Source: a virus
DNA: 40,343 nt
Strand: one strand, 5' to 3'
Virus record (IMG/VR): IMGVR_UViG_3300045988_036893
Span: 1-40,343 of that record
The position numbers were made by a program, and so were the translations under genes. Position 1 is the first letter of the stretch, and each line of letters starts with the position of its first letter. Below are positions 4,731 to 40,343 of this stretch, piece after piece. Under the pieces are notes generated by a model that saw only the letters and a list, made by a program, of their open reading frames with translations, was not told where the DNA came from and ran no database searches.

Positions 4731-5129
4731 TTATTTGCCTTTCAGCTCTGCTTCGATGATTCTTTTGTACTGTTCGCCGTGCTCGGCAACGGCAGGCTTG
4801 ATATACGGTTTAGCGCGTTGCCCGTGGGTCAGATGCCAATTGCCTTTTGCGTCTTGATATACCCACGGCGTTTGTCTGCCGCCCGGATAGTAAATGCCCG
4901 TGCCGCACTCCACATAAACTGCATACTCGCTGTTTGTGCCGATATATGCGGCCTTTTCGCCGTCGCTGACCATGTGTGTAATGCTGTTGCGCAGGTTGCC
5001 TGTGTCGACGGGGCATAGCTTTTTTGCATAGCCCTCCGCAACAAGCCCGCATTTTTCAAGCCCGCGTGCAAGGGCAGCGTCAAGGGCTGAAAGCACCTCG
5101 TCGCTGTGGTCGTCAAAGATGATTTTCAT
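4731..5129 (-). CDS. HK97 gp10-family head-tail component
   Basis: The motif DTGNLRNSI and the 132-aa size are typical of the HK97 gp10 family. Confidence 0.7.
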   Translation of the reverse strand: MKIIFDDHSDEVLSALDAALARGLEKCGLVAEGYAKKLCPVDTGNLRNSITHMVSDGEKAAYIGTNSEYAVYVECGTGIYYPGGRQTPWVYQDAKGNWHLTHGQRAKPYIKPAVAEHGEQYKRIIEAELKGK

Positions 5130-9302: not shown

Positions 9303-9708
9303 TTATATCCCCCCAAAACCCCTTTGCGCCGGAGGAAAAGCGCGTTCCCGCCCTGTCGGTTTATGCCGTGCCGACCTCACCCGTTGCGGTGAGCAAATCC
9401 GCAACGCTTTTGTACAGTCAGAATTTAACGTGCCTGCTGTCCACACGCTTTTTTCATCCGCTGCATTTATCCCCCGCGTGCGGATTCGCGGTTCTGCTTT
9501 GATGTAATGGGTTTCGGCGATGCGTAACGGCGTCAGTAACAGCGTTCGCACAAGCAGATGCCGGGCAGACTTTTTCAGGCTCTCGAAGTCCCGTTGCGAC
9601 CTGCCATCGCGCCGCGCTCCTTATCGGCTTGCCGCTTTGCTTACAGCGTTCATGTTAGCTATCGCGTTTCCTGCGCCGGGCTTTCACCGGTGGGAGCGAC
9701 CCAGCTTT
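9303..9708 (-). ncRNA. candidate large structured non-coding RNA (about 400 nt body)
   Basis: No credible ORF is present (track ORFs here lack an RBS and are Arg/Cys/Pro-rich). Hairpins are dense, including GAAA loops, a long-range 7-bp helix (9552-9558 with 9493-9499), and mutually exclusive helices at 9376-9406. Confidence 0.4.
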
Positions 9709-9792
9709 CGCCAACAGCAGGATTTGAACCTACAACTAAACCCGCAGCTATGCTGTCATGAGGCCCGGCTTTACCAGTTAAGCTATGTTGGC
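9709..9792 (-). other. tRNA-like element lacking a canonical anticodon arm
   Basis: It has a perfect acceptor stem GCCAACA/TGTTGGC, a D arm GCTT-AACTGGTA-AAGC and a T arm GTAGG-TTCAAAT-CCTGC. The 34 nt between them (containing CTCATGA) form only a 4-bp hairpin. No CCA is encoded. Confidence 0.4.
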
Positions 9793-9894
9793 ATATAAAT
9801 GCGCGGCAGTTGCGCGTGTTGCACGGTGTGCAAGTTATAAGCAAGTTAATATTTAACGTATTAACGCGCTATATTTTAAAACTTGTCACAAACT

Positions 9895-10476: not shown

Positions 10477-10552
10477 TGGTGCTGAATCGAGGACTTGAAC
10501 CCCGAACCCCCTGATTACAAAACAGGTTCTCTACCAGTTGAGATAATCCAGC
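10477..10552 (-). tRNA. tRNA-Thr (anticodon UGU), CCA encoded
   Basis: I folded the cloverleaf by hand: 7-bp acceptor stem (one G-U), D arm TCTC/GAGA, anticodon loop TTTGTAA, T loop TTCAAGT. Length is 76 nt. Confidence 0.8.
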
Positions 10553-10640: not shown

Positions 10641-10714
10641 TGGCACGGGTGGAAGGTCTTGACCCCTCATCTTGCGGTTTTGGAGACCGCAGTTCTGCAT
10701 TGAACTACACCCGC
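10641..10714 (-). tRNA. tRNA-Trp (anticodon CCA), CCA encoded, non-canonical D and T loops
   Basis: The acceptor is GCGGGTG/CACCCGT (G1-U72), the anticodon arm is GCGGT-CTCCAAA-ACCGC, and the T loop GTCAAGA is atypical. Length is 74 nt. Confidence 0.6.
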
Positions 10715-23671: not shown

Positions 23672-24577
23672 ATGGGCTTTTTTGACTTTTTGAAGCCGAA
23701 ACAAAAAGTAAATGTTTCCATAACTACACATGAGCCGACTAAAGATGAAATTGCAAAGCAGTATGCTGGTTACTGCAAAGCACAAACAGAAAAGCGGCAT
23801 GCTGAACAGGAAGAGCGAGCAAACGATAATTTTCTAGCGCTGTCTGCTGATGATCTCGCAGACAAAAACGGTCTAAAGCCAACAGAAATTTTAATGCTTT
23901 CTTATTTAGAGAAATATTCCAGCGGAAAGCCTGTTGCAAAGTTCTGGCATTATGATTATGGCGTTGATGATGTTTGGCCTATTATTAAAAAGCTGGAATC
24001 AATGGGATTTGCCGAAAACGGAAAATTGACCGAAAAGGGAAAAGCAGAAATAAAAGCCAACGAATACGTTTATTTTTATCACAGAAAATCCTATGCTCAT
24101 TGGGCTTTTACTTTGCCGGAGTTTTGTCGCGCCGTAAACGCTCGAAGAGACATCCCATATCGAGATTTAATATGGGGGCAATATAATAAACTATATATGG
24201 AAGCATTTTCATCTCCAAAAAGATGCCGTGATCTGCGCTATTTAATGTATGAATTTTTAGAGGATGAGAAGAAGTACAAAAATGCTTTTTCCATGTTGCT
24301 TGAAATTCCGTTTTACGACATGAATTGCGGTCGCCCGTTTGTATCGCCTAGTGTTATGCTGGAACTAAAAAAGGCGCAAAAGAAAGCATCCCTTACAGAA
24401 GAAGAAGTCTTTAATATGGCAAAAGGAAGCTATAGCAGAATCTTTGTTGATAATCCTACCATTCCCGCAATGGATGCCGCAGGCGTTGTCACGTCTTACA
24501 TTTTTGGAAAAGACGGGCTTGCGCAGAGGGTTCTAAAATCTTACAAAATAGATTGCAATAGATTGTTTTCCGCATAA
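23672..24577 (+). CDS. orphan 301-aa protein in AT-rich island next to the integrase (family not recognised)
   Basis: It is a long clean ORF, visibly AT-richer than the genome, on the same strand as the integrase. Confidence 0.7.
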   Translation: MGFFDFLKPKQKVNVSITTHEPTKDEIAKQYAGYCKAQTEKRHAEQEERANDNFLALSADDLADKNGLKPTEILMLSYLEKYSSGKPVAKFWHYDYGVDDVWPIIKKLESMGFAENGKLTEKGKAEIKANEYVYFYHRKSYAHWAFTLPEFCRAVNARRDIPYRDLIWGQYNKLYMEAFSSPKRCRDLRYLMYEFLEDEKKYKNAFSMLLEIPFYDMNCGRPFVSPSVMLELKKAQKKASLTEEEVFNMAKGSYSRIFVDNPTIPAMDAAGVVTSYIFGKDGLAQRVLKSYKIDCNRLFSA

Positions 24578-24976: not shown

Positions 24977-26053
24977 ATGAAAAGAACAAATACAGCGAGA
25001 TGGATTGAATCTGCCCAGCGCTGGCAGATAAACGTGCAGAAAGACGGCGTGCGCAAAACCTTTACCAGCGCCAAGCCGGGGCGCACAGGCCAGCGGGAAG
25101 CCAACAAAAAAGCAGATGACTGGCTAGAAAACGGCTTGCAAACGCGCGGAAAGACGGTCGAGAGCGCATATAAAGAATACCTTGCGAGAGAATCAAAAAT
25201 ATCGGGCATAAGCAATTTTAGACCAAAGGAAAGCCGCTGGCGCATATGGATTCAGCCGGAAATTGGGCACCGGCGGTTGGAATCGTTGACGCAGCAGCAA
25301 GTGCAAACAGTTTTAGACAACGCCAAAGCCGCTGGAAAAAGCCGTAAAACGCTTCAAAATATCTATGGAGACATCACATCGTTTTTTCGGTTTGCACGCA
25401 ATTCAGGCTATACAACGTTTGTACCAGATAACTTGAACATTCCCGCTGGAACTCCAAAGCCGCAAAAGAAAATATTGCAGCCAGACGATTTAGCAATTTT
25501 ATTGTCAAGCGACAAAACCAAGTACATGGGCAAGGAAGCCAAAGACCCTTATATCAACGCATACCGCCTTGCTGTTCTGACCGGGATTCGACCGGGTGAG
25601 TTGATTGGTATGCAGTGGGAAGATGTGAAAGAAAACAGAATTTTTCTGCGGCGTGCGATCAACATTTATGGAGAAAAAACAACAGGTAAAAATGACAATG
25701 CGGTTAGAGCAATTGAATTGTCCGACATGGCTAAAAGCGTAATAGATGCGCAACGCGAACTTACAAAAAATGGTAAAAGTGTTTTTGGCATCTCAGATGA
25801 GCACTTGCTCTATAAATGGTGGAGAAAGTATTTCGATTACAACGGAATAAATTATGTTTCTCTTTACGAGCTTCGACACACGTTTGTATCGATTGCAAGC
25901 GCACTCCCGGAAGGGCAGCTCAAACAGATTGTTGGGCACAGCAAAAATATGGATACATTTGGTGTGTACGGCCACGCAGTCAACGGCCAGGCCGAAAAAA
26001 TAGCCTCTGCGATTGACGAAACATTTAAGGACGTGCTAAAAAGTACACACTAA
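24977..26053 (+). CDS. int: tyrosine recombinase / phage integrase
   Basis: It has an AAGGAG RBS. The C-terminal catalytic pattern is YELRHTFVS ... VGHSKNMDTFGVYGH. Confidence 0.9.
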   Translation: MKRTNTARWIESAQRWQINVQKDGVRKTFTSAKPGRTGQREANKKADDWLENGLQTRGKTVESAYKEYLARESKISGISNFRPKESRWRIWIQPEIGHRRLESLTQQQVQTVLDNAKAAGKSRKTLQNIYGDITSFFRFARNSGYTTFVPDNLNIPAGTPKPQKKILQPDDLAILLSSDKTKYMGKEAKDPYINAYRLAVLTGIRPGELIGMQWEDVKENRIFLRRAINIYGEKTTGKNDNAVRAIELSDMAKSVIDAQRELTKNGKSVFGISDEHLLYKWWRKYFDYNGINYVSLYELRHTFVSIASALPEGQLKQIVGHSKNMDTFGVYGHAVNGQAEKIASAIDETFKDVLKSTH

Positions 26054-26064
26054 AAGTACACACT
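26040..26064 (+). repeat. two direct AAAGTACACACT repeats (candidate arm-type integrase sites, P arm)
   Basis: The copies at 26040-26051 and 26053-26064 overlap the int stop codon. Confidence 0.6.
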
Positions 26065-26160
26065 TTTTTGGAAAATATATGGTTTGCCACAAAAATGTAG
26101 AACGATAACGTCCCGTATCATCGCCATTTTTTGCTTGTTGAATCGATATGATTCTGTATC

Positions 26161-26188
26161 TCCGTGGGTTCGACTCCCATCAGCCGCT
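26161..26188 (+). other. attP core candidate: 3' part of a tRNA gene (T arm + 3' acceptor strand)
   Basis: The sequence GTGGG-TTCGACT-CCCAT-CAGCCGC-T has no matching 5' acceptor strand upstream, so it is a partial tRNA, as is typical of tRNA-targeting integrases. Confidence 0.6.
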
Positions 26189-26195
26189 CTTTTAA

Positions 26196-26236
26196 AAACA
26201 CCGTAGATTCGTCGAAATCTACGGTGTTTCCTTTTT
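26196..26236 (+). terminator. strong terminator directly after the tRNA fragment
   Basis: A perfect 14-bp stem AAACACCGTAGATT/AATCTACGGTGTTT with a 6-nt loop is followed by CCTTTTT. Confidence 0.75.
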
Positions 26237-26237
26237 C

Positions 26238-26260
26238 AAGTACACACTTTAGTACACACT
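26238..26260 (+). repeat. two more direct AGTACACACT repeats (candidate P' arm sites)
   Basis: The copies at 26239-26248 and 26251-26260 have the same orientation as the P-arm pair. Confidence 0.6.
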
Positions 26261-26263
26261 TGC

Positions 26264-26401
26264 CTATTTTCTCTGCAAGCTGTGTACCAAATCATTATAC
26301 ACTTCAGGCCGTGCTTCTTTCAGCGCATCCATAAACTCATCCAGCACACGCCACACTCGCCCGTCATCAGCCTTGCTTACAATCTCCAAAAATTCACTCA
26401 T
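26264..26401 (-). CDS. cargo ORF 9 (45 aa), paralogous to the C-terminal part of ORF 8
   Basis: It is not in the track. MSEFLEIVSKADDGRVWRVLDEFMDALKEARPEVYNDL aligns with SDFLQAVSNVDTTAALNVLDELMSALYVTNPKVYNNV. It has an 8-nt overlap with the upstream ORF. Confidence 0.45.
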   Translation of the reverse strand: MSEFLEIVSKADDGRVWRVLDEFMDALKEARPEVYNDLVHSLQRK

Positions 26402-26570
26402 CCTGTAAACGCTCCAATTTCCGCATTACGTTATTATAAACTTTAGGGTTTGTTACATACAAGGCCGACATAAGCTCATCCAGCACGTTCAGCGCTGCTG
26501 TGGTGTCTACATTTGACACAGCCTGCAAAAAGTCACTGCCGCTTCGTAGTAACGCGCAGGCTCTTGCCAT
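26394..26570 (-). CDS. cargo ORF 8b (58 aa; probably the displaced C-terminal half of ORF 8)
   Basis: It lies in the -1 frame relative to 26507..26716 and overlaps it by 64 nt. There is no RBS at its own ATG. Confidence 0.4.
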   Translation of the reverse strand: MARACALLRSGSDFLQAVSNVDTTAALNVLDELMSALYVTNPKVYNNVMRKLERLQDE

Positions 26571-26716
26571 TTTGCTTTTTGTGGGGCAGGGGATACATCT
26601 GCAAGTTGCTGATTTTTCACAACATACAGCGCCGCCAAATTTTTAACTCTGGTCATGGTAAGTTCGCTGTTTTCGATTTCGGCTATAGCGCCGTCAATCT
26701 CTCGCACGTCCACCAT
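26507..26716 (-). CDS. cargo ORF 8a (69 aa)
   Basis: ATG at 26716 follows GGAGGTG. Confidence 0.55.
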   Translation of the reverse strand: MVDVREIDGAIAEIENSELTMTRVKNLAALYVVKNQQLADVSPAPQKAKWQEPARYYEAAVTFCRLCQM

Positions 26717-26730
26717 AGCCGCCACCTCCG

Positions 26731-27126
26731 TCAAGTGTTTTTCAGCTCGTCGATGCAATGCTGGATAGTCTCGCGGTCGTATCCATCAACGTTTCGTAGC
26801 ATGTCTTCCAGCTTTCGCATCATGCTGTCTCGCGCATCGTCTCGGCTGTAATGGCCACGCACATAATGAGAACCGCGCCGAGCATAGCTACTGCCGCGTC
26901 CATAATTGCCGCGCATGTTGGCGTTCCAATCACCATCCCGGCTGTAATCTTCATCGCGGCTGTAACCGTTTTCTTCCAGCATTGTAATTTTGTCGATGTT
27001 TTTAATGGTGTCGGTCAGCTTGTGAACAGTTTCCAAGTCGCCAGCAGACATTTCGCCTTTTTTGCCGATTTCGTCCAGCTCTGCGCACAGCATGTCCTTC
27101 AAATCGTACATAACTTTCATACTCAT
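26731..27126 (-). CDS. cargo ORF 7 (131 aa): helical ends flanking a Y/S/R/G/D-rich low-complexity core
   Basis: It has a strong AAAGGAG RBS. The core reads GYSRDEDYSRDGDWNANMRGNYGRGSSYARRGSHYVRGHYSRDD. Confidence 0.7.
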   Translation of the reverse strand: MSMKVMYDLKDMLCAELDEIGKKGEMSAGDLETVHKLTDTIKNIDKITMLEENGYSRDEDYSRDGDWNANMRGNYGRGSSYARRGSHYVRGHYSRDDARDSMMRKLEDMLRNVDGYDRETIQHCIDELKNT

Positions 27127-27139
27127 AATAGCGCTCCTT

Positions 27140-27562
27140 TCAGCTCACTCTCTCAACCATAAAGTTTGCGTTCGCAAACAAAACGGTTTGTGTGCTTGTG
27201 TTTTCGGCGGCAACGGTAAGGCAGCAGCCGCGCGGAACTTCAACAAAAGCCGTGACGTAAATATTAAAATAGTTTTCTACTGCTGCCGGTGTCACGGTTG
27301 CACTCGCACTGTTCAGCGGTTCTCCGTTGATGGAAAGTGCAGCCGTAATAGCTTCCACTGTGCCGCCGGTAGGGATAGCAACGTTTGCACCAAATCCCAC
27401 TTTAAAGCGAGCTTTGCACTGGTTCGTAATGCCGCGCAGCGTAACAATACCGGCGCCCTCTCTGTGTACGACACAGCCCTTACCCGCTACTGCCGTTTCC
27501 GTCAGTGGCACGTTCTGGCCTGCTGCCACGCTCACGGTATTGGCGTTTGTAAATTCAGCCAT
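27140..27562 (-). CDS. cargo ORF 6 (140 aa): beta-rich protein, possibly BclA C-terminal/TNF-like jelly-roll
   Basis: ATG at 27562 follows AAAGGAA. The pattern ...GIVTLRG...FKVGFGANVAIPTGG...INGEPL...ANANFMVERVS resembles the exosporium BclA C-terminal domain (weak, from memory). Confidence 0.6.
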   Translation of the reverse strand: MAEFTNANTVSVAAGQNVPLTETAVAGKGCVVHREGAGIVTLRGITNQCKARFKVGFGANVAIPTGGTVEAITAALSINGEPLNSASATVTPAAVENYFNIYVTAFVEVPRGCCLTVAAENTSTQTVLFANANFMVERVS

Positions 27563-27577
27563 AAAATCATTCCTTTC

Positions 27578-27613
27578 AAAAAAAAGATAGTGGCGGGACG
27601 ATTGCCCCGCCAC
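27578..27613 (-). terminator. internal terminator/attenuator of the cargo operon
   Basis: Minus strand reads GTGGCGGG-8 nt-CCCGCCAC followed by TATCTTTTTTTT, immediately before the ORF 6 RBS. Confidence 0.6.
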
Positions 27614-27676
27614 ATTTTGCACCATCGGCACGGGGCCGAACATGTCAGATGTTCCGACAAGTTGCCGTATTCGGTT

Positions 27677-28435
27677 TTAGCAGCCGCAGCCGTTGCAGCC
27701 GTTATAAGTGCCAGCTGCCCAGGGGTTGCAAGACTGGTAGGCGGGCACCGGCAATGGGCGCAGCTGGTTCAGCAGATAGCTGTTCTGCGCCGCCTGACTT
27801 GCGGCAAGCTGAGCGGCGAAAAGCTGCTGGTTCTGCTCGGCAATCTTGGCGTCTTTGGCCTCAATGCGCTGGGCGGTCATAGCGTCCAAAATTGCTCTCG
27901 CATTGGCGTTCTGGTTGTCGATGATGTCGCGCGTGCCGTTGCTGATCGTCTGGCGTGTCTCACAAGCCTGCGTTGCCGAATTGTAATTCACGCCCTGAAT
28001 CGCCTCGCGGGTCTCGCAGCAGCAGTTGGCCTGCTGCATCTGCATGGCAAAGAGCTGCTGCATAAATGCGGCCTGCTGGTTTGCACGGCTGATTTCGGCC
28101 GACATAAAGCCGTTGCTCATGCCCTGCTGTACGCCGTTGATAAGCTGCGCCTGCTGATAAAAGCCATCGCACAAGCCATTGTTCACGTTGTCAATTTTGC
28201 GCTCAATGTTGGCAAAATCCGACGTAAGAACGTAACCGTCAACCACGCCAGCACCGTTGCCAGCATTGTTGCCCCAGCCGTTGCCATTGCCCCAGCCGCC
28301 AGCGAAGATGAACAGAAACAGAACGATAAGCCACAGAGCGCCGTTATCACCCCAGCCGAAGCCACCACCATTGGAATTGGTATTTGCGGGCTGAACCGGC
28401 ATTGTCATAACAGTGCCGTCAGAAGAAAGACTCAT
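27677..28435 (-). CDS. cargo ORF 5 (252 aa): G/N/W-rich N-terminus, one TM, Q-rich coiled region, Cys clusters
   Basis: It has a strong AAAGGAG RBS. Notable segments are NGGGFGWGDNGALWLIVLFLFIFAGGWGNGNGWGNNAGNG, ...QQANCCCETRE... and the C-terminal GCNGCGC. Confidence 0.7.
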   Translation of the reverse strand: MSLSSDGTVMTMPVQPANTNSNGGGFGWGDNGALWLIVLFLFIFAGGWGNGNGWGNNAGNGAGVVDGYVLTSDFANIERKIDNVNNGLCDGFYQQAQLINGVQQGMSNGFMSAEISRANQQAAFMQQLFAMQMQQANCCCETREAIQGVNYNSATQACETRQTISNGTRDIIDNQNANARAILDAMTAQRIEAKDAKIAEQNQQLFAAQLAASQAAQNSYLLNQLRPLPVPAYQSCNPWAAGTYNGCNGCGC

Positions 28436-28495
28436 AGTATTCTCCTTTCAAAAAATATCAAAGTTAATGTATGTTCACCGTGCGCACGGATAAAC

Positions 28496-28714
28496 CTATT
28501 TCAAAAATCCTTGAAACTGCTGCGCCATCGTCTGCAACTGGTTAAGCTGCTGCTGGCTCATCTTCCCGGACTGCAGCAGTTTCTGCACCTCTTGTTTTGG
28601 GTCGCCCTGAAAATTTTGCCGAAATTGCTGAAACTGCTGCATCATCTGCTGAAACTGCCCCATCGGGCCGGGCAGCTTACCACCGCCCAGAGCATTAAAC
28701 AGTGGATTTGGCAT
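28496..28714 (-). CDS. cargo ORF 4 (72 aa): Q/F/M-rich small protein
   Basis: ATG at 28714 follows AAAGGGTGA. The sequence includes PMGQFQQMMQQFQQFRQNFQGDPKQEVQKLLQSGKMSQQQLNQLQ. Confidence 0.6.
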   Translation of the reverse strand: MPNPLFNALGGGKLPGPMGQFQQMMQQFQQFRQNFQGDPKQEVQKLLQSGKMSQQQLNQLQTMAQQFQGFLK

Positions 28715-29126
28715 TGTTATCACCCTTTCCCGGCTTGTCTGCCGTCAGCGCGTCAAGGCGGGCGCGTAGAGCGTCAAACTCTGCTCGCGTGACAAACTTA
28801 TCGTCTACTGTTTCGGGCTTCTGCGGGGCTTGTTTGCCGCGCTCTGTGTAGTCAAATACTCGCAGTGGTTGCGGCATCCCGCTTGCATCAGTAGACTTGA
28901 TGTAGAACACACTGTTTTCGCTGTCCATCAGCAGCACACTGTTTCCAGCCGCCACCATGTAAGCTTTCGCGCCCTCTTCACCCTGCACCCAGATGATAGG
29001 CGCGGACTGCTGCGGTTGCTGGTAGTTCTGCCGCAGCTGCGCCAGCTGGTCTGGCATTGCGGACGGCTGCCCCATCGGGTAATATCCCGGCGCAAATCCG
29101 GGCTGATACGGTACGCCAAACGCCAT
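28695..29126 (-). CDS. cargo ORF 3 (143 aa): P/Q/Y-rich N-terminus plus a conserved-looking globular domain
   Basis: ATG is at 29126. The domain reads IIWVQGEEGAKAYMVAAGNSVLLMDSENSVFYIKSTDASGMPQPLRVFDY. Confidence 0.65.
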   Translation of the reverse strand: MAFGVPYQPGFAPGYYPMGQPSAMPDQLAQLRQNYQQPQQSAPIIWVQGEEGAKAYMVAAGNSVLLMDSENSVFYIKSTDASGMPQPLRVFDYTERGKQAPQKPETVDDKFVTRAEFDALRARLDALTADKPGKGDNNAKSTV

Positions 29127-29132
29127 TGTCAA

Positions 29133-29510
29133 TCATCCTTTCTGCCAGTAGTACAGCGGCACTTCATCTCCGCTGTCCCATGTATCTAGCCAATCCCCAT
29201 TCTGCACGCACACAACATGCGTAGCCATTGCCAAAATGTATGTTCCGTCCGGGTGGTCTTTCGCAAATTGCGCAACGGTGTAACAGTCCGGGCAACTGTT
29301 CGGAATTGCCGAACGCGTCCACCCGCATCGCCGCAGATAGCTGCCCCAGACATAGTTTGCAGACGGCATATCATGCAGTTCAAATCCTGCCAACACCAGC
29401 GCCGCATATACAGCCGCCCACGATTGATGCGTTGCAGCTGCAATGGCTCTGACGGTGCAATCGCCAACGCGCTTTTGCTCTGGGTTTAGGTTGATTTGCC
29501 TGTATGCCAT
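29133..29510 (-). CDS. cargo ORF 2 (125 aa): putative papain-like (C39-like) cysteine peptidase fold
   Basis: ATG at 29510 lies 8 nt after AAGGAG. Candidate catalytic residues are Cys (RVGDCTVRAI) and His (MATHVVCV), followed by DTWD. Confidence 0.55.
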   Translation of the reverse strand: MAYRQINLNPEQKRVGDCTVRAIAAATHQSWAAVYAALVLAGFELHDMPSANYVWGSYLRRCGWTRSAIPNSCPDCYTVAQFAKDHPDGTYILAMATHVVCVQNGDWLDTWDSGDEVPLYYWQKG

Positions 29511-29537
29511 CCGCACCGCTCCTTTTTCTTTAATTGT

Positions 29538-29592
29538 ACAAAAAAAGACGGCACAACGTAGGCCAGTAAAGTGCCAACATTGTGCCGTCTTT
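29538..29592 (-). terminator. terminator 2 of a tandem pair (13-bp perfect stem, 23-nt loop, T7)
   Basis: Minus strand reads AAAGACGGCACAA...TTGTGCCGTCTTT followed by TTTTGTACAAT. Confidence 0.55.
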
Positions 29593-29597
29593 GGGAC

Positions 29598-29636
29598 AAA
29601 AGAAAAAAGGGCGCGGCCGCAAAAGCAGCCGTGCCC
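29598..29636 (-). terminator. terminator 1 of a tandem pair ending the late/lysis operon
   Basis: Minus strand reads GGGCACGGCTGC-TTTT-GCGGCCGCGCCC followed by TTTTTTCTTTTG. Confidence 0.7.
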
Positions 29637-29642
29637 TTTAAA

Positions 29643-29807
29643 TCAGCCTATTTTGTTTTTGATACTGTGTACGCGCCGTTTTACCGTGCGCTCGCTACAA
29701 TTTAATTCTGCCGCAATATCAGCATTGCGCCAGCCGCGCCGCCGAAGCTGCAAAACATCCGTTTCTTCATCGGTCAGCAAACCGCCGACAAAATCAAACT
29801 TTGGCAT
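29643..29807 (-). CDS. stand-alone GerE/LuxR-type HTH protein (54 aa)
   Basis: It is not in the track. MPKFDFVGGLLTDEETDVLQLRRRGWRNADIAAELNCSERTVKRRVHSIKNKIG matches the GerE/sigma region-4 pattern. Confidence 0.6.
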   Translation of the reverse strand: MPKFDFVGGLLTDEETDVLQLRRRGWRNADIAAELNCSERTVKRRVHSIKNKIG

Positions 29808-29809
29808 GA

Positions 29810-30004
29810 TTACTCATCCTTCTTGTTCTTGCTTTCGGTCTGCGTGCCAAAATAAAAGGCCACGACCATTGTTACAATGGTCATAACCGTATCAGGCTGT
29901 AATTCGCTCTGCAATGCCAGCACCGCAAAAACCGCAACTACCACCAGCGTCACAATGGTTTTTACCTTGATAAGCGCTGCCAGATTTTTCAAAAAATCGC
30001 CCAT
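29810..30004 (-). CDS. holin (64 aa, two TM segments, charged C-terminus)
   Basis: It has TM segments TIVTLVVVAVFAVLAL and VMTIVTMVVAFYFG and the tail ESKNKKDE. It lies downstream of the endolysin. Confidence 0.7.
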   Translation of the reverse strand: MGDFLKNLAALIKVKTIVTLVVVAVFAVLALQSELQPDTVMTIVTMVVAFYFGTQTESKNKKDE

Positions 30005-30165: not shown

Positions 30166-30417
30166 TTACTTGCCGTCCAGATCGTGCAACCGCTGCTCGT
30201 GGTTCTGCAAAACTTTGTCCTGCTCGGTATTGTGCTCCCACAACCGGCGGTGGCTTTCGGTGTTGTTGCTGTCCAGCGTTTCTACTTTCTTCATCACACT
30301 TTCCAACAACGTTTTTAGTTCGGTAATGCTGGCGTTCAGTTTCAAAAGCGGGGTGGTTACAGTTATAACCAGCCCCACAATCACAACAATGTCCTTAAAG
30401 ATTACCCATTCATCCAT
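30166..30417 (-). CDS. membrane-anchored coiled-coil protein (83 aa), lysis-cassette associated
   Basis: It has the N-terminal TM IVVIVGLVITVTTPLL followed by a coiled coil. It lies between the endolysin and the holin. Confidence 0.6.
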   Translation of the reverse strand: MDEWVIFKDIVVIVGLVITVTTPLLKLNASITELKTLLESVMKKVETLDSNNTESHRRLWEHNTEQDKVLQNHEQRLHDLDGK

Positions 30418-30437: not shown

Positions 30438-31682
30438 TCATGCCCACTCGCTTCTATACAGCCCGGCATCCGTCAAGCCACGTTCCTTGCACAGCAAATA
30501 AATCGCATCTGCGTCTCCCTGCGTAACCGGCCCTACCGTGATGACCTGCAGCTTGCTTGCGGGCTTGTCCACTGCTGGCAGGGCCTTGACCAGATGGTTC
30601 AAATCAACCACGCCGGTGATGCCTGCGACGCTGCCCTGCCCGTATTGGTGGATGTAGCGCGGCAGCGTCTTATCGTAGTTGGTGCGCGTATCGGCCAGCC
30701 AGCCGATATAATCCTCGCACATATAAGCGTAGTCGATATTCGTGCTCGCGAACGACGTGAAGGTGTAGACGCCTGCCGTAAATCCGTGCGCTTTGGCCTT
30801 ATCGCAAAATGCCATTGCGATTGCCGTGCGCTGGTCTTTCGTCAGGTTGTCCGCGCGGCCATCATGTATGCCAGCATCGGTCGTATGCCCCCATTCGCTG
30901 TCGAAAAACAGCGGGTAGCCAGCTGGTGCAATGCTTGCGCAGAAGTCTGCTTCCTCGCGGGCTTCGTCCACTGTGACTGCCTGAGAGAAGAAATAAAAGC
31001 CGAACAGCTTCCCGTTCGCTTTCGCCCCTGCAAGGTTGGCATCGTACTGCTCGTCCTTCATCAGCTTTCCGCTGCCGTAGCCGCGATACCCGATGCGAAC
31101 AATGGCGCGGTAGGGAACACTCGCCCAGTCGATAGCGCCCTGGTGGTGGGATACATCAATCAGTACTTCCTCACCGCTTGTCTGCGCAGGCTGGTCGCCG
31201 TAGGTTCCTACCTCATTCGGGCAGCCCGCATACGCCGTCAGGTCAAGTCCCTTGCCGGTGGCAGTGGCACGCACCTCGAAATGGCAGTGCTTGTAGGGCG
31301 GGTCTGCCAACGCGGCATTGCCGGTGTTGCCCATAACGGCCAGCGCATCGCCGCTCTTGACTCTCTGGCCTGCCTTAACCAGCAGGCTGGCGCAGTGGCA
31401 GAAGTACAGGTAGTTGACGGCATCCGGCGTCTGGTTTGTGTCCAGCTGGACACAGACGTAATATCCCCACTCCCACGTCGCATTGCTTTTGTCGGTCACA
31501 ATCCGCGCCCGGGTCACCGTGCCGGAAATGCTCTTGCCCTTGTAGGTGGGCATGTAAATGGTCTCATCGTCCAGCGCTTCCAGATCAATGCCGCCGTGCC
31601 ACGTCTTGCCGCCGCCCCGGGTGTATCCGTACCGGGCGTAGTTGTACCGCACTCGAAATCGTCCTTTAAAAATTCCTGTCAA
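30438..31682 (-). CDS. bifunctional endolysin: M23 peptidase + GH25 muramidase
   Basis: TTG start at 31682 follows GAGGTGA. The M23 motifs are WHGGIDL and GNTGN...HCHFEV. The GH25 motifs are IDVSHHQGAIDW, GFYFFS and FFDSEW. Confidence 0.85.
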   Translation of the reverse strand: MTGIFKGRFRVRYNYARYGYTRGGGKTWHGGIDLEALDDETIYMPTYKGKSISGTVTRARIVTDKSNATWEWGYYVCVQLDTNQTPDAVNYLYFCHCASLLVKAGQRVKSGDALAVMGNTGNAALADPPYKHCHFEVRATATGKGLDLTAYAGCPNEVGTYGDQPAQTSGEEVLIDVSHHQGAIDWASVPYRAIVRIGYRGYGSGKLMKDEQYDANLAGAKANGKLFGFYFFSQAVTVDEAREEADFCASIAPAGYPLFFDSEWGHTTDAGIHDGRADNLTKDQRTAIAMAFCDKAKAHGFTAGVYTFTSFASTNIDYAYMCEDYIGWLADTRTNYDKTLPRYIHQYGQGSVAGITGVVDLNHLVKALPAVDKPASKLQVITVGPVTQGDADAIYLLCKERGLTDAGLYRSEWA

Positions 31683-37136: not shown

Positions 37137-37987
37137 ATTACCGTTACACCCGCACTTTCTTCCGCAAACGAAACACTCATCTCAACGTTTTCAAGCCCAC
37201 TGTCCGCAGTAGGCTTCCACGCATTATCGCCCGTATGGATTCTGTACAGTGTACTTTCAAGCGTAAGTGCACCCCGGCAGTCACCGTCCTTAGAGCTTGT
37301 GACCGTTGTTTTCCCGTGCGATGTCTTGATAACGACGCGCTCATCTTCCACAAGCGTTTTTTCCAGCCGCAGCACTTCACCTGTCAGCATGTTTTCAATG
37401 CCTACGTTTGTTGCCGTCTCGCCAACGCAATTGATTTCCAGAATAAACGGAACATCAAACTGCCCGAAATTCTGCAAAACAATGTATTTCAGCACAATGA
37501 CTTTGCCGAAATAATACGTTTTGCTGATATTCCATGGGAATTTAAAACCTTTTTGCACGCCGCGCAGCTGCATTGCTTTTCGTTCTCCACTTTCCCAATA
37601 CGGGTAGGGGGCAAGCAAGCCAAGCTGAAACGGCGCACCGCGTTTTGATGGGCCAATGGTAGGCGATGCCGTTACAATAACGTCTATGTGCCAGTCTCCG
37701 GCATATAACACTCCGGTAAGGTCAGGTCGTACAACGGTCGTAAGCGCGTCTTTCAGCGCTTGCGCGTCTTTGCCTATAACTCTGCCATTGATGGTAATAG
37801 GCCGCGTCTGAATGGCCTTAGATTGCACCGTAGCGCCTACTTGACCTATGCCCTGCGCCGTGTTGGCAGTGATCGAAATTGTATCAATGCCATCCGGCTT
37901 ACTGATAAGATAACCATGATCATAGTCAAACACGATAGACTGCCCCAGCGAGTTGACGTATTTAAAAGTCTTGCTTAAAAAACTCAT
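37133..37987 (-). CDS. distal tail protein (Dit, Sipho_tail family)
   Basis: ATG at 37987 overlaps the TMP stop (ATGA). It is 284 aa. Confidence 0.75.
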   Translation of the reverse strand: MSFLSKTFKYVNSLGQSIVFDYDHGYLISKPDGIDTISITANTAQGIGQVGATVQSKAIQTRPITINGRVIGKDAQALKDALTTVVRPDLTGVLYAGDWHIDVIVTASPTIGPSKRGAPFQLGLLAPYPYWESGERKAMQLRGVQKGFKFPWNISKTYYFGKVIVLKYIVLQNFGQFDVPFILEINCVGETATNVGIENMLTGEVLRLEKTLVEDERVVIKTSHGKTTVTSSKDGDCRGALTLESTLYRIHTGDNAWKPTADSGLENVEMSVSFAEESAGVTVI

Positions 37988-40343
37988 ATCGCCCACCTCG
38001 CCCGCTGAAAATACGCTGCTGTACTTGCTGCCAGTTCAACCGGCGTCTGCTTTGCCGCGTAAATATTTTGCGTCAGGGTAAAACCGTTGCTGCTGCCCTT
38101 ACCGCGTCTGTAACTGTCCGCCTCATCGGCTGTCAGCACCATCTCGCCGCGATGCAGATTTGCAACGTAGTTGTTATAAGGGACATAATCCATGCCGCCT
38201 GCGTGGCTGCCGTCAGACCCCGTATTGTTTTTCACATCACTTGCATTGATGACAAAAATGCTCTTGATGCCATCCCACAAGCCCTGCACAAAGCTGACAA
38301 GACCACCCCAAACAGCCGCAATGCCGCCCTTGATGCCCTCTACAACGTTTTGGCCGACCGTAGAGAAAAAGTCAAACGCACCTTCAAAGATGCCCTGAAT
38401 CGACTCCCACGCGCTCTGAAAGTCACCGGACAACACAGCGTCAATCGTAGAGAACACGCCAGTAATCAAATTAAACACAGTCTGGAAAAAGCTTACCGCA
38501 ACATTCCAGATGCTTTGAATGATGATCCACGCGCCCTGAAAGAATCCGCTGATAATCGGTGCAAAAGGTGCAAAGATAACCACAATTGCCTGAAAGATAG
38601 CCTGAAAGAATGCGCTTGCCCATGCCCATACAGTCTGTACAAGGCTCCATGCAGCGCTGAACGCTTCACCGATGCTCTGTATAACCGGGGTCAAATCTGT
38701 AATGACCTGCGTAACGACCTGCCCGATAACCTGCATAGCCGCTTCAACATAGGGCTGCACCCATGCTACAAGCTCTTCGATTTTTGCCCAGATGTTTTCA
38801 ATAACGCCATTTACAGAATTTCTGAAATCTTCGTTCTTCGCATACAGCACAGCCAAAATACCAACCAGTGCGCCAATTGCAACCACAACCAGTGTAATTG
38901 GGTTTGCTGCCAAAACCGCATTAAAAGCGGCTTGCGCTTTTGCCGCTGCCGCCTGTGCCAACGTCATAAGAGAAATCTTCCCTGTAAGCAATCCGGCAAG
39001 AACTTCGGATGCCTTTAATGTGCCATTGAGCGCGCCCTGTGCAATTTCCGTGTCAGAAAGCCCCATGCTGAACAAAGAAACAGCAACTTTGGCTTCGTCA
39101 AAGGCCGTTGCCATTTTTTGGATTTTCGTCCCGATTTGCCAGCCTTTTACAGCTGCACCAACCGTCACAAGTGCTGGTGCGATTTCTTCAATTACAGGCA
39201 CGACTTCTTCAGCCGCTGTTTTAACATTATCAAAAATGTCAAGCAAGAACGAAAAGTCAGAGTTTTCAATCGCGCTTGTCAGCCCGGAAATAATTGCATC
39301 GCCAAAAAAAGAAAACACATCAGCAACAATGGGCTGCAATTCGCTTGCTACGCTGCTTAACCCGCCGAAAAGTGTCTGCAAGCCCTCTTCAATAGTCGGT
39401 TCAAGCTCCATAATCACACCGCTCACATAAGGCGCAAGCTGTGTGACCAGTTCGCTCAAACCATCAATCAAAGTAGGCACAATTTCTTTGATGCGCGGTA
39501 TAATGTTGTTTCCGGCAGTAATAACGCTGTCAACAAGGTTGTCCACCAAGGCTTGAAAGTTTTGCTCCGGGTCTGCAATTCCGGTCAAAAGATTTTCCCA
39601 AGCGCTCTTCATCGACGCTGTACTGCCTTGAATTGTAGTTGCAGCTTCCTTGCTGGTTGTTCCCATGATGCCCATGTTGGCCTGCACGACATGAATCGCT
39701 TGTACAATGTTCGCATAGGACATACTGTTGGAATCGACCGTAACACCAAGCTCTTTCTGCGTGTCCGTCATGGCAGCGGCTTCTTTGATAAGCCGCTTCA
39801 TTTCAGCTTGCGTGCCGCCGTAGCCAAGCTTTAGGTTGTCAAGCATTGTGTAGTTCTGCTTCGCGAAGCCGTTATATGCGTCTTGGATGGACGAAATATT
39901 CGTACCCATTTTGTTCGCATTATCGGACATATCCGAAATTGCAGTATTTGCCATTTCAGCGGCTTTTTCTGTGTTACCGCCCAAACTTGAAACCAGTGCC
40001 GCCGCAAACGATGTGGATGTTTCCATGTAATCATTTGCTGAAAGACCCACATTTTTGTATGCGTCTTTTGCGTAGTTCTCTATGATTCCCGCGCTATCTT
40101 TGTACAGCGTTTCCACGCCGCCGACAAGCTGCTCATACTCTCCGTAGCTATCCAGAGATGCCTTGCCGATTGAAATTGCCGCGCCAGTTGCCATTTTGCC
40201 TATGTTAACAAATCCGTTTGCAACATTGCGCAGACCGTCTGTAACAACGTTTCCTAGCACGGTGCCGGAAAAAACGTCCATCAGAGAGGAAGCCCCGCCC
40301 TTTGCCTTTTCTACGCCTTTTTCGTATTCGCTTGTGTTTAGGC
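37984..40343 (-). CDS. tape measure protein (body; the start lies at position 86 across the circular junction)
   Basis: It is long, Ala/Gly-rich and helical with hydrophobic segments, upstream of Dit. The frame is open to the window end and continuous with 55..86. Confidence 0.9.
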   Translation of the reverse strand, partial: LNTSEYEKGVEKAKGGASSLMDVFSGTVLGNVVTDGLRNVANGFVNIGKMATGAAISIGKASLDSYGEYEQLVGGVETLYKDSAGIIENYAKDAYKNVGLSANDYMETSTSFAAALVSSLGGNTEKAAEMANTAISDMSDNANKMGTNISSIQDAYNGFAKQNYTMLDNLKLGYGGTQAEMKRLIKEAAAMTDTQKELGVTVDSNSMSYANIVQAIHVVQANMGIMGTTSKEAATTIQGSTASMKSAWENLLTGIADPEQNFQALVDNLVDSVITAGNNIIPRIKEIVPTLIDGLSELVTQLAPYVSGVIMELEPTIEEGLQTLFGGLSSVASELQPIVADVFSFFGDAIISGLTSAIENSDFSFLLDIFDNVKTAAEEVVPVIEEIAPALVTVGAAVKGWQIGTKIQKMATAFDEAKVAVSLFSMGLSDTEIAQGALNGTLKASEVLAGLLTGKISLMTLAQAAAAKAQAAFNAVLAANPITLVVVAIGALVGILAVLYAKNEDFRNSVNGVIENIWAKIEELVAWVQPYVEAAMQVIGQVVTQVITDLTPVIQSIGEAFSAAWSLVQTVWAWASAFFQAIFQAIVVIFAPFAPIISGFFQGAWIIIQSIWNVAVSFFQTVFNLITGVFSTIDAVLSGDFQSAWESIQGIFEGAFDFFSTVGQNVVEGIKGGIAAVWGGLVSFVQGLWDGIKSIFVINASDVKNNTGSDGSHAGGMDYVPYNNYVANLHRGEMVLTADEADSYRRGKGSSNGFTLTQNIYAAKQTPVELAASTAAYFQRARWAI
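40289..40343. repeat. second copy of the 55-nt terminal repeat
   Basis: Identical to 1..55. Confidence 0.95.

Follow-up and report, generated by a model that had tools for sequence, protein, structure and literature searches.

Gene and signal layout beside attP

A block of minus-strand genes lies between the end of the lysis operon and attP in the 40,343-nucleotide stretch of viral DNA analysed here (the window). The original prediction had counted nine ORFs in it; their sizes were recovered once Shine-Dalgarno-linked ATG starts were taken, and the tandem and internal terminators, the 12-bp palindrome and the attP arm repeats were all found as described. The nine ORFs exist, but ORF7 and ORF8 (26507-26716 and 26394-26570) are pieces of one disrupted gene (26394-26716) of 117 aa in its undisrupted form, so the block comprises eight genes. 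The window lacks 31 bp that are present in the otherwise identical relative L093, the deletion lying between GCGGCAG repeats, and a single gene of 107-129 aa occupies this place in L001, L005-L008, L091 and L093-L095. The upstream border, set at about 29636 in the original prediction, was moved to about 29807 because the helix-turn-helix (HTH) gene at 29643-29807 travels with the cassette: an HTH of the GerE/sigma-70-region-4 kind adjoins it in 55 of 88 related loci. This gene encodes a stand-alone 54-aa domain that scores 39.5 bits against Pfam GerE (cut-off 23.5) and 29.2 bits against Sigma70_r4_2. The lysis operon ends with this gene, whose start is 2 nt beyond the stop codon of a holin-like gene.

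Two tandem intrinsic-terminator hairpins (29538-29636, minus strand) separate the HTH gene from ORF1. A terminator scan located a hairpin at 29631-29614 followed by a T-run, and folding of 29525-29645 produced two strong hairpins, each with a U-run after it (MFE -61 kcal/mol, z = -9.4 versus shuffles). Nearly all related loci likewise have a strong hairpin and T-run after their HTH gene. After the second T-run, a TACAAT -10-like hexamer can be read. An intrinsic terminator or attenuator (27578-27613, minus strand) stands directly after ORF4, where the scan found a hairpin at 27613-27590 followed by T8; a hairpin and T-run recur in the ORF4-ORF5 spacer of 44 of 65 related loci, with differing stem sequences. 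There is no room for a promoter between this terminator and ORF5 and, as read from the sequence, most cassette genes have no promoter of their own. ORF1 and ORF5, which lie behind terminators and have no obvious promoters, could thus be poorly expressed.

The spacer between ORF3 and ORF4 holds a conserved operator-like element, the perfect 12-bp palindrome CCGTGCGCACGG (28478-28489), an exact match that is unique in the window. Its form CGTG-SS-CACG was found again in 24 related loci and, with few exceptions, occupies this spacer there too. Most other loci instead have a perfect palindrome of another sequence; its core is GC-rich, and TATAAAT or TAAATA comes after it, 25-35 nt ahead of the ORF4 start. 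As for the weak promoter predicted around it, the scan match TTGATA-16-TACTAT was rejected as implausible because its -10 coincides with the start codon, and an A/T-rich -10-like element just downstream of the palindrome appears to be a better promoter candidate. A palindrome in the spacer region of a promoter suits a repressor as well as an activator. That the HTH protein acts on it is an assumption; by-eye inspection across loci revealed no visible tracking between palindrome type and HTH type.

The attP region (26042-26261) is not part of the cassette. The arm repeat AGTACACACT occurs four times in the window, at 26042-26065 and 26239-26261, and only 2 nt separate the last cassette stop codon (26264-26266) from the copy closest to it. 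Between the arm repeats lies a fragment resembling a tRNA 3’ end (about 26151-26190, identified by inspection), at which ARAGORN detected no whole tRNA. A perfect inverted repeat with 14-bp arms (26196-26229) and T-runs on both sides is situated just past ORF9, between the 26239-26261 repeats and the tRNA-like fragment. The tyrosine integrase gene is annotated at 24977-26053 on the plus strand.

Proteins encoded by the cassette

The cassette encodes one single-pass membrane protein, one TNF-like jelly roll and one small predicted peptidase. The predicted peptidase is ORF1 (29133-29510, 125 aa, phrog_3754), in which C18, H98 and D109 are invariant among 29 homologues. Its AF2 model is confident (pLDDT 94), its fold matches are weak (Josephin-2, probability 0.72, E 0.15), and it is probably papain-like. 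Thus, of the papain/C39-like Cys-His assignment made originally, the Cys-His part stood, now as a Cys-His-Asp set, while C39 did not, Pfam Peptidase_C39 having no match to ORF1. Members of the ORF1 family also occur alone, outside the cassette, in Bacillus Tsamsa-like phages, Geobacillus phage GBK2 and Lak phages, and ORF1 is therefore possibly a neighbour rather than a component.

The membrane protein is ORF4 (27677-28435, 252 aa, phrog_16490). Its Gly/Trp-rich N-terminus contains one hydrophobic span, LWLIVLFLFIFAGGWG (hydropathy maximum 1.76 at residue 33). Beyond it come a long helical stretch rich in Q and N, a CCC cluster that hardly varies, the motif P.PVPAY and a C-terminal tail rich in Cys and Gly, which ends in GCNGCGC. 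The protein is conserved over its whole length in an alignment of 24 homologues, and its family counts at least 7900 homologue clusters; Pfam, NCBIfam and PDB returned no match. ORF4 is predicted to be a coiled-coil protein that crosses the membrane once, and its Cys clusters are conserved. Hydropathy analysis found a hydrophobic signal-like segment in none of the other cassette products.

ORF5 (27140-27562, 140 aa) is a stand-alone TNF/C1q-like jelly roll with an invariant GCC motif. Its AF2 model (pLDDT 90.5) and Foldseek agree with the original suggestion of a BclA C-terminal/TNF-like fold: the top PDB matches are the C-terminal domain of F-BclA (9h38), ExsFA (7r1m), BxpB (8d02) and BclA (1wck), with E-values of 1e-7 to 7e-6 and TM-scores of 0.71-0.78, and TNF ligands come next. 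The model thus places ORF5 confidently closest to ExsF/BxpB and the BclA C-terminal domains. Sequence similarity to ExsFA/BxpB-BclA was undetectable in PDB profile searches, and Pfam BclA_C stayed below threshold on ORF5, reaching E < 0.01 in only 2 of 50 relatives. In BFVD, the matches include many uncharacterised gut-phage proteins of about 135 aa. The family forms 690 clusters at 50% identity, its listed members having a single domain and no more than about 200 aa, in most cases about 140 aa, with a mean column identity of 58% over 50 diverse members.

ORF2 (28695-29126, 143 aa, phrog_21718) has, in an alignment of 39 homologues, a P/Q/Y-rich disordered N-terminus, a conserved small globular domain (WVQGE.GAK.Y.V....V.L.DSE...FY.KS.D.SGMP) that by eye is probably beta-rich, and a helical C-terminal YVTR.EFD.L segment; Pfam and PDB sequence searches gave no match. 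The start of ORF3 (28496-28714, 72 aa, phrog_22984), a helical protein with 28% Gln, overlaps the end of ORF2. ORF6 (26731-27126, 131 aa, phrog_28802) consists of helical N- and C-terminal domains around a hypervariable Y/S/R/G/D-rich low-complexity core (39 homologues). Tblastn cross-matches identify ORF9 (26264-26401, 45 aa, helical) as a paralogue of the ORF7/8 C-terminal domain, and a 45-aa gene is called at its place in relatives. The small paralogous helical ORFs predicted originally are thus paralogous in the case of ORF9, but ORF7 and ORF8 are not separate genes.

Co-inheritance and genomic settings

The order HTH-1-2-3-4-5-6-7/8 recurs across 88 loci in phages and prophages of Oscillospiraceae, Lachnospiraceae and relatives. 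ORF5 is present in all 88, ORF4 in 83, ORF2 in 72, ORF6 in 68, ORF1 in 61 and ORF3 in 60, besides the 55 with HTH mentioned above. This fixed order is kept down to 27-45% protein identity in many phage lineages, Butyrivibrio virus Ceridwen, at 27-44% identity, among them, which bears out the predicted co-functioning module. A shorter form, type B (n = 13), reads HTH-2-4-5-6 followed directly by a HExxH peptidase of about 106 aa; it has neither ORF1 nor ORF3, and a profile seeded with type B sequences merges with the ORF6 family. The HExxH peptidase is unrelated to ORF1, so that the peptidase class is interchangeable between cassette types. Near-identical cassettes are paired with different phage backbones and different lysis modules, and in relatives homing endonuclease and methyltransferase genes are inserted in the intergenic spacers. 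Thus, a fixed gene set is inherited together, with its own small HTH and internal cis-elements.

The cassette is always co-oriented with late genes. In most phages it follows the lysis genes, behind strong terminators, and in most temperate carriers it sits at the prophage end adjoining att. The slot between lysis genes and att, which the original prediction took as the classical site for cargo, does not define it, however: in Dulem virus 35 and one lineage of Lachnospiraceae prophages it is flanked by the minor capsid gene and the scaffold/major capsid genes, and it is complete in Ceridwen, which has been seen only in the lytic cycle and for which integration/excision enzymes are not reported. 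On its upstream side the cassette adjoins either holin and endolysin genes or the minor capsid gene, and on its downstream side an integrase, scaffold genes or host DNA. In keeping with the original prediction, the only PHROGs that the products match are those annotated as of unknown function, and PADLOC and NCBIfam searches matched nothing; no defence, bacteriocin or named Pfam/NCBIfam family was found among the matches.

A possible late envelope assembly and its alternatives

We tentatively favour a reading in which the cassette directs a late-expressed, membrane-anchored, peptidase-matured assembly. The cassette would be a “very late” lytic unit, its HTH protein being produced together with holin and endolysin from the distal end of the late operon. 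The HTH would act on the palindrome-flanked promoter to give strong ORF4 expression, while the terminators would throttle ORF1-3 and ORF5-9. Such a regulator would resemble GerE, stand-alone LuxR-type or sigma-70-region-4-like late regulators, with which it shares a Pfam GerE score above threshold and a stand-alone DNA-binding domain encoded at the end of a late operon beside its presumed targets; it differs in that HTH subfamilies vary between cassettes, being LuxR-like or sigma-r4/ECF-like. ORF4 would insert in the cytoplasmic membrane, its coiled-coil stalk reaching into the cytoplasm, and ORF5 trimers would dock on its conserved proline-containing, Cys-rich C-terminal tail, much as trimers of ExsF/BxpB hold on to BclA or F-Anchor by its proline-rich leader. 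The clefts of ExsF trimers bind a proline-rich leader peptide (PMC12357932). The disorder-rich ORF2, ORF3 and ORF6 would be adaptors or matrix, and the small peptidase (ORF1 here, HExxH in type B) would mature or release one component. In the infected cell this would yield a protein assembly anchored in the membrane and possibly cross-linked through Cys, acting at the envelope around lysis, in egress or in progeny protection or exclusion, and not in lysogenic conversion. This biological role is the weakest step. We know of no late function that requires such a protein set, and the promoter-gene-terminator layout at ORF4 and the usual att-adjacent site also fit prophage expression.

The likeness to the exosporium systems of the Bacillus cereus group (ExsFA/BxpB-BclA and ExsF-F-Anchor) extends beyond the fold. 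ORF5 is likewise a stand-alone jelly roll of about 140 aa, adjoins a fibrous partner that contains Cys and a conserved proline motif, and has no signal peptide, as cytoplasmic assembly would predict; BclA attachment involves proteolysis, in which residues 1-19 are removed, and a peptidase is linked to the cassette. The partner here, however, is a membrane-anchored coiled coil, and the cassette is phage-borne. ORF4 also shares with spanins (Rz/Rz1) and XhlA-type accessory proteins an N-terminal span, long coiled coils, conserved Cys, a proline-containing C-terminal end and a gene adjoining lysis genes, and it recalls an i-spanin fused to a proline-rich o-spanin-like tail. Nevertheless, no sequence or family match links it to these proteins, the hosts are monoderm Firmicutes, which lack an outer membrane that spanins could fuse, and the seven conserved cassette companions have no counterpart in spanin systems.

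Prophage-expressed superinfection exclusion or abortive infection is an unlikely reading, yet the one we weigh most seriously against the late assembly. ORF4 would serve as a membrane effector made in the lysogen under a promoter, operator and terminator of its own, ORF5 would sense an incoming phage component, and the peptidase would trigger the effector, loosely like protease-activated bacterial gasdermins. The prophage end adjoining att is a usual place for such genes, and the moron-like layout of ORF4, the pairing of a membrane protein with a peptidase of exchangeable type and the movement among unrelated backbones and lysis modules all agree with it. Gasdermin-protease operons similarly link a small peptidase gene to a membrane-active protein and allow peptidase classes to substitute (Cys-His-Asp versus HExxH), but no gasdermin or PADLOC model matches here, and ORF4 is a bitopic coiled-coil protein in a phage late-gene context, not a gasdermin fold. 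As the original prediction had noted, none of the products matches a nameable defence family; nuclease, NTPase and other usual effector or sensor domains are absent, and ORF5, at 58% identity, does not show the hypervariability that might be expected of an arms-race sensor. Morons and lysogenic-conversion cassettes share the position between lysis cassette and attP, the flanking terminators and the ORF4 layout. The present cassette differs from them in its fixed order of eight to nine genes, its own regulator and the lack of individual promoters for most genes, and it occurs also in a head-gene cluster and in an apparently virulent phage. These two settings and the lack of promoters also count against the exclusion reading.

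Conversion of the host surface or spore, by an exosporium- or nap-like layer, seems improbable. ORF5 would be its ExsF/BclA-like unit, the Cys-rich ORF4 a lattice or anchor, and the Tyr-rich ORF6 coat-like. The best structural matches of ORF5 are indeed all Bacillus spore-surface proteins, the regulator is GerE-like in Pfam terms, and the products other than ORF4 have no signal peptide, a trait shared with exosporium proteins that the mother cell assembles. The Cys clusters and the low-complexity protein rich in Tyr, Ser and Arg are likewise reminiscent of proteins of the spore coat and exosporium. The exosporium suggestion of the original prediction was nonetheless weakened, since the window has no collagen-like partner or stalk and neither ORF4 nor its family has an exosporium leader (TIGR03720). 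The BclA_C scores described above, the occurrence in a lytic phage and a head module, and the frequency of TNF-like jelly rolls in phage fibres and giant-virus proteins also argue against it, as do the likely hosts, which include Gemmiger, Vescimonas and Butyrivibrio, genera described as non-spore-forming.

We see equally little probability in a virion-associated accessory, in which ORF5 trimers, with ORF2 and ORF6, would decorate the capsid or form head or neck fibres, with ORF4 either helping assembly or being ejected as a membrane-active protein. The setting in Dulem virus 35 and the Lachnospiraceae lineage is one where decoration genes are often located, TNF-like knobs occur in phage spikes and fibres (the phi812 knob matches ORF5 with TM 0.63) and the cassette is co-oriented with late genes; however, most phages carry it after the lysis genes behind strong terminators, near-identical copies combine with different backbones, no PHROG structural annotation applies, and a regulator and membrane protein of its own would be unusual for structural genes. 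Finally, the ORF1 Cys-His pair, together with the GCNGCGC end and Gly-rich N-terminus of ORF4, would agree with the original guess of a secreted Cys-rich peptide and its peptidase, here a bacteriocin or similar peptide served by its own C39-type enzyme. This reading is effectively refuted, since there is no C39 match, no double-glycine leader consensus (by eye) or substrate and no ABC transporter nearby, nor any modification enzyme or immunity gene, and ORF4, at 252 aa, is a coiled-coil membrane protein whose conservation spans its full length.

The block is one copy of a tightly conserved cassette of eight to nine genes, which apparently has not been characterised before. Its carriers are thousands of phages of gut Clostridia, in which it is a mobile, self-contained accessory cassette.

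A conserved gene set between the late operon and attP

The cassette, a minus-strand gene set at about 26264-29807 comprising a small HTH gene followed by ORF1 (125 aa), ORF2 (143 aa), ORF3 (72 aa), ORF4 (252 aa), ORF5 (140 aa), ORF6 (131 aa) and the small ORF7, ORF8 and ORF9, is a mobile, co-inherited and internally regulated gene set of Clostridia phages. It represents about 3.5 kb of a 40-kb phage genome and encodes a single membrane protein, a TNF-like jelly-roll protein, a predicted small peptidase and several disorder-rich proteins. Iterated HMM searches were run over 88 fetched loci, many of them truncated contigs. ORF5 was found in all 88, ORF4 in 83, ORF2 in 72, ORF6 in 68, ORF1 in 61, ORF3 in 60, the small HTH gene in 55 and ORF7/8 in about 35. 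In these loci, the gene order is almost invariably HTH-1-2-3-4-5-6-7/8, with a Lachnospiraceae lineage displaying the order 1-HTH-2-3-4-5-6, and is kept at 27-44% identity in Dulem virus 33 and in the cultured Butyrivibrio virus Ceridwen.

The ORF4 family contains more than 7900 clusters at 90% identity, itself a lower bound. The ORF5 family contains 6420 clusters at 90% identity and 690 at 50% identity in an exhaustive profile search; among the matches listed, its members have a single domain and are mostly ~140 aa long, reaching about 200 aa at most. Scanning one genome per species returned an ORF5 relative in at least 193 genomes, nearly all from gut or rumen Clostridia (e.g. Oscillospiraceae, Lachnospiraceae, Acutalibacteraceae), a few being evidently mis-binned phage contigs. 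The six larger products fall into PHROGs of unknown function and gave no match in Pfam at threshold, NCBIfam or PADLOC; the generic HTH excepted, no cassette protein is in a characterised family. The original prediction had named no defence family for these proteins, and this holds: no PADLOC-DB v2 model credibly matches any of the nine ORFs, the sole match (E 0.0036) being to the low-complexity region of ORF3, and the HTH is recognised only by generic models of CARF-associated HTHs.

The window represents a whole temperate phage genome of siphovirus type, circularly permuted. An exact 55-nt direct repeat is present at both ends (1-55 and 40289-40343), indicating that the assembly is circular and complete. 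The late operon is on the minus strand and crosses the junction of the window ends. It includes the genes for the large terminase (7555-8838), the portal (6141-7520), a MuF-like minor head protein (5126-6154) and the major head protein (2972-3970) and, across the junction, the tape measure (37984-40281), followed by minor tail and fibre genes, an M23+GH25-type endolysin (30438-31682), a DUF7365/XhlA-like membrane protein (30166-30417) and a two-span holin-like protein (29810-30004). The 54-aa GerE/sigma-70-region-4 HTH gene (29643-29807) begins 2 nt past the stop codon of the latter. ARAGORN also calls three minus-strand tRNA genes (9708-9793, 10477-10552 and 10641-10714), namely Thr(TGT), Trp(CCA) and a 'tRNA-His' of 86 nt whose anticodon, ATG, is unusual; this last one may be a mis-call or an atypical tRNA.

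On the other side of the cassette, attP separates it from a plus-strand tyrosine integrase gene (24977-26053). It consists of four AGTACACACT arm repeats and a core (26151-26190) containing the tRNA 3'-end-like sequence GGGTTCGACTCCCATCAGCCGCTC on the plus strand, which suggests that the phage integrates into a tRNA gene. In two relatives that are integrated (L005 and L006), however, the prophage borders on Rnf genes and a flavodiiron-like gene; related phages thus use different integrases and att sites. Integrated copies terminate beside host Rnf genes, which makes an Oscillospiraceae species the probable host; among named relatives of ORF5, the closest, at 91% identity, is from Gemmiger formicilis. 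Upstream of the integrase, in the lowest-GC part of the genome (39%), lies a plus-strand ORF of 301 aa (23672-24577) with no PHROG match at E <= 1e-5, possibly a separate cargo or lysogeny gene.

The original prediction of a nine-ORF operon that begins at two tandem terminators and runs up to attP is largely borne out. The ORF sizes are recovered given SD-linked ATG starts, the tandem terminators downstream of the HTH gene are predicted to form a pair of strong hairpins with U-runs (z = -9.4), the terminator after the 252-aa gene is found again by a terminator scan, and the final stop codon lies 2 nt from the arm repeats. Two points need revision. Firstly, the ORFs are real but the unit does not start at the terminators, as the upstream HTH gene is part of it. 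Secondly, all nine sequences are present, but ORF7 and ORF8 are pieces of one gene (26394-26716, minus strand), which encodes 117 aa in the otherwise identical contig L093. Compared with that contig, 31 bp are missing from the window between two GCGGCAG repeats, resulting in two overlapping ORFs; more distant relatives have a single ORF7/8 gene of 107-129 aa. ORF9 is, by sequence, a paralogue of the ORF7/8 C-terminal domain.

Predicted structures and families of the cassette proteins

ORF5 was predicted by AF2 to be all-beta (pLDDT 90.5), and the model is confidently assigned to the TNF-like 10-strand jelly rolls. Foldseek returned F-BclA CTD, ExsFA, BxpB, BclA, 4-1BBL and EDA, all with a probability of 1.0. 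The best PDB neighbours are F-BclA CTD, ExsFA, BxpB and BclA (E 1e-7 to 7e-6, TM 0.71-0.78), the TNF ligands ranking after these ExsF/BclA-type proteins, while the best BFVD matches come from uncultured gut phages and are uncharacterised proteins of ~135 aa. The resemblance to a BclA C-terminal/TNF-like fold proposed for the 140-aa protein is therefore supported at the level of the fold but not by the Pfam threshold: BclA_C (PF18573) scores 17 bits against a gathering score of 38 for the 167-aa form of the ORF (E 0.0056) and does not match the 140-aa form. Only 2 of 50 ORF5 family members match BclA_C at E < 0.01 (best 4.4e-7), and PDB profile searches with ORF5 retrieved nothing, making the sequence-level link to ExsF/BclA marginal.

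ORF4 is the only product with a segment resembling a membrane span. Its Gly/Trp-rich N-terminus, with a single hydrophobic span, is conserved among 24 diverse homologues. So are a long helical stretch rich in Q and N, a CCC cluster that hardly varies, the motif P.PVPAY and a C-terminus rich in Cys and Gly. Its PDB profile search gave nothing significant, a weak match to influenza HA2 (E about 0.1-1) being treated as noise. In the exosporium, the clefts of ExsF trimers clamp the proline-rich leader of BclA or F-Anchor (PMC12357932). ORF5 is similar to the ExsFA/BxpB anchors in fold and stand-alone size, and the neighbouring ORF4 carries the nearly invariant P.PVPAY motif, a candidate ligand. 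A collagen-like stalk and an exosporium leader were not found: no run of five or more collagen-like GXY triplets is present in any frame of the window, and the exosporium leader TIGR03720 matches neither ORF4 nor its family.

ORF1 contains G16-D17-C18, H98 and D109, all invariant in 29 homologues, and in its AF2 model (pLDDT 94) C18 begins a helix (18-27). The best PDB fold match is the papain-like deubiquitinase Josephin-2 (probability 0.72, E 0.15, TM 0.46), and USP, Tae4, CHAP and PLpro are matched at E > 1 only. As Foldseek returned nothing at E < 0.1, the term papain-like is based on the catalytic residues; a PDB profile search also found nothing. ORF1 is thus a predicted papain-like (clan CA) cysteine peptidase. 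The more specific proposal of a C39-like enzyme, i.e. a bacteriocin-processing peptidase, is not upheld: Pfam gives no match and no transporter gene is found in or near the block. ORF1-like proteins (28-41% identity) also occur without the rest of the cassette in unrelated, large Tsamsa-like Bacillus siphoviruses, in GBK2 and in Prevotella Lak megaphages, for example Bacillus phage Tsamsa gp15 (L090 3974-4369) and Geobacillus phage GBK2_35 (L089 3986-4375), some being annotated 'putative peptidase'. ORF1 is therefore less tightly tied to the cassette than the other genes.

Among the remaining products, ORF2 is disordered and rich in P, Q and Y at its N-terminus, contains a small conserved globular domain that, judged by eye, is probably beta-rich, and finishes in a helical YVTR.EFD.L segment. 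Nothing significant was found for it by PDB profile search, weak matches to thioredoxin-family proteins (E about 0.1-1) being regarded as noise. ORF3 (72 aa) is 28% Gln, and in ORF6 helical ends flank a hypervariable Y/S/R/G/D-rich core.

A shorter form of the cassette, referred to as type B, was found in 13 loci. It lacks ORF1 and ORF3 and has the order HTH, divergent ORF2, ORF4, ORF5, longer ORF6, and then a ~106-aa HExxH protein with weak Peptidase_M78/SprT-like/DUF6782 matches (L003 7214-7531; L042 9100-9420; L050 9044-9364; L061 9361-9684; L062 9118-9450; and 8 more loci). Seeding a profile with the ORF6 sequences of type B leads back to the ORF6 family. Together, these results indicate that the core of the cassette is HTH-2-4-5-6 plus one small peptidase of either class. 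The HExxH protein seems to stand in for the Cys-His-Asp protein ORF1 without being homologous to it, and this swap between cassette types argues that some peptidase is needed.

Regulatory elements and genomic contexts of the cassette

The HTH scores 39.5 bits against Pfam GerE (cut-off 23.5) and 29.2 against Sigma70_r4_2 (cut-off 25.7), which identifies it as a predicted LuxR/GerE-type regulator. Three cis-features of the cassette are conserved in position and variable in sequence. Nearly all loci have a strong terminator directly 3' of the HTH gene. The spacer ahead of ORF4 contains a perfect palindrome whose core is GC-rich (for example GTGCGCAC, GTGGCCAC, GCGGCCGC, CCGGCCGG or CTGCGCAG) and which is followed, a few bases on and 25-35 nt before the ORF4 start, by a TATAAAT- or TAAATA-like sequence. 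A hairpin with a T-run follows ORF4 in 44 of 65 spacers. The layout around ORF4 is that of a candidate moron, with the palindrome and a -10-like element upstream and a conserved terminator downstream. A promoter called by the scan upstream of ORF4 was discarded, its -10 overlapping the start codon. ORF1 and ORF5 lie directly behind terminators with no space for a classical promoter; before ORF1, a TACAAT hexamer is found past the T-run of the second terminator.

The 12-bp palindrome noted in the original prediction is exact and is the only copy in the window. Its form, CGTG-SS-CACG, was observed in 24 loci, nearly always in the ORF3-ORF4 spacer, for an estimated chance expectation of about four matches in roughly 1 Mb. 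An RNA hairpin or terminator was rejected, the palindrome being perfect without a loop and having no consistent T-run. Loop-less and with its symmetry kept while the sequence changes, it has the look of an operator bound by a dimeric protein, for which the neighbouring HTH is the prime candidate; by eye, palindrome type and HTH type do not clearly correspond, and the link between the two thus stays an assumption.

Selfish genes have inserted into the cassette spacers. A NUMOD4+HNH_3 endonuclease gene occupies the ORF3-ORF4 spacer on the opposite strand in three loci, two of them from close relatives of the window (L091 4298-4900; L092 3770-4372) and the third from Dulem virus 33 (L001 9751-10302), and a 371-aa cytosine methyltransferase-like ORF, recognised by eye, the ORF4-ORF5 spacer of a Lachnospiraceae prophage (L038 6825-7940). 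Where the HNH gene is present, the usual palindrome is absent, and hence the palindrome might double as an HNH homing target.

When three genes on each side of the cassette were scanned with Pfam, most loci had holins and endolysin domains upstream, and six sequences had Phage_min_cap2 there; the downstream side holds genes for tyrosine or serine integrases or for phage scaffold proteins, or else host genes. Two contexts emerge. In the first, the cassette is at the prophage end, after the lysis genes. In the second, it is within the head module, between a minor capsid protein on one side and scaffold/major capsid genes on the other, as in Dulem virus 35 and the Lachnospiraceae prophages L035-L040. 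The slot between lysis genes and att is thus true of most loci but is not the only one. The cassette always runs in the direction of the late genes. The gene-neighbourhood comparison asked for in the original prediction yielded a conserved cassette order and no non-phage context among the loci examined, the genomic flanks all looking like phage or prophage ends. The single plasmid-database match turns out to be a prophage carried by a Vescimonas replicon of 861 kb; RefSeq annotates every cassette gene there as 'hypothetical protein'. A complete cassette is also present in Ceridwen, which its authors grouped as virulent with the related Arian and Bo-Finn and which was observed in the lytic cycle only; for Arian and Bo-Finn, the authors report no integration or excision enzymes.

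Near-identical cassettes (97-99% in ORF4) are joined to different lysins. The endolysin beside them is of the M23+GH25 type in the window (30438-31682), Amidase_2+Glucosaminidase in L091 (1190-2332) and M23 only in L093 (2385-3062). The recombination break points between these contigs lie just upstream of the HTH gene.

Possible roles of the cassette

We tentatively favour a role late in the phage cycle, on the basis of the co-orientation with late genes in both contexts, the presence of the cassette in a phage seen in the lytic cycle only, and the lack of an own promoter for most cassette genes. In such a role, the HTH, a product of the late operon's end, would switch the cassette on, and a membrane-anchored assembly would form in the cytoplasm of the infected cell. 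By analogy with ExsF, putative ORF5 trimers may attach to the ORF4 stalk at its tail, which contains proline and Cys, and the peptidase would mature the assembly.

Ranked second, and in our view rather doubtful, is an exclusion or defence function expressed from the prophage; the moron-like layout of ORF4 and the position beside att are what such a function would have in its favour, the failure of PADLOC-DB v2 to recognise any of the nine ORFs being a point against it. Conversion of the spore or cell surface appears improbable, given that the ORF4 family has no exosporium leader and ORF5 no collagen partner in the window, and we see a similarly small chance that the cassette decorates the virion. 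A bacteriocin system, in which a C39 peptidase would process a secreted Cys-rich peptide, is effectively refuted.

The late-cycle role can be extended to a more detailed proposal, speculative and on balance unlikely to hold in full: a 'very late' regulon of gut Clostridia phages that would build an exosporium-like, Cys-cross-linkable assembly at the infected-cell membrane from a TNF-like trimer, a membrane-anchored coiled-coil stalk, disordered matrix proteins and a small maturing peptidase. If true, known phage functions would offer no counterpart to such a structural or egress-related device, in which a phage would employ the ExsF/BclA architecture away from sporulation.

The gene set corresponds to no system in PADLOC, NCBIfam or Pfam, and a search of the literature retrieved no description of it; the only solid structural link, that to ExsF/BclA, concerns one protein of eight. 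We therefore rate the cassette as having no known counterpart, meaning that no characterised one was found, and its function as putative; it may prove to be a version of something known, exclusion for instance. The cassette is abundant in public data, intact across very divergent backbones, equipped with its own regulator and restricted to phages of the dominant butyrate-producing gut Clostridia. The cultured pair of Ceridwen and B. fibrisolvens DSM 3071 makes the question of its role directly testable. Solving it would give a function to six unknown-function PHROG families at once, would show the job of a TNF/ExsF-like trimer outside spores, and could reveal a new mechanism of the late cycle or of phage competition in poorly studied hosts.
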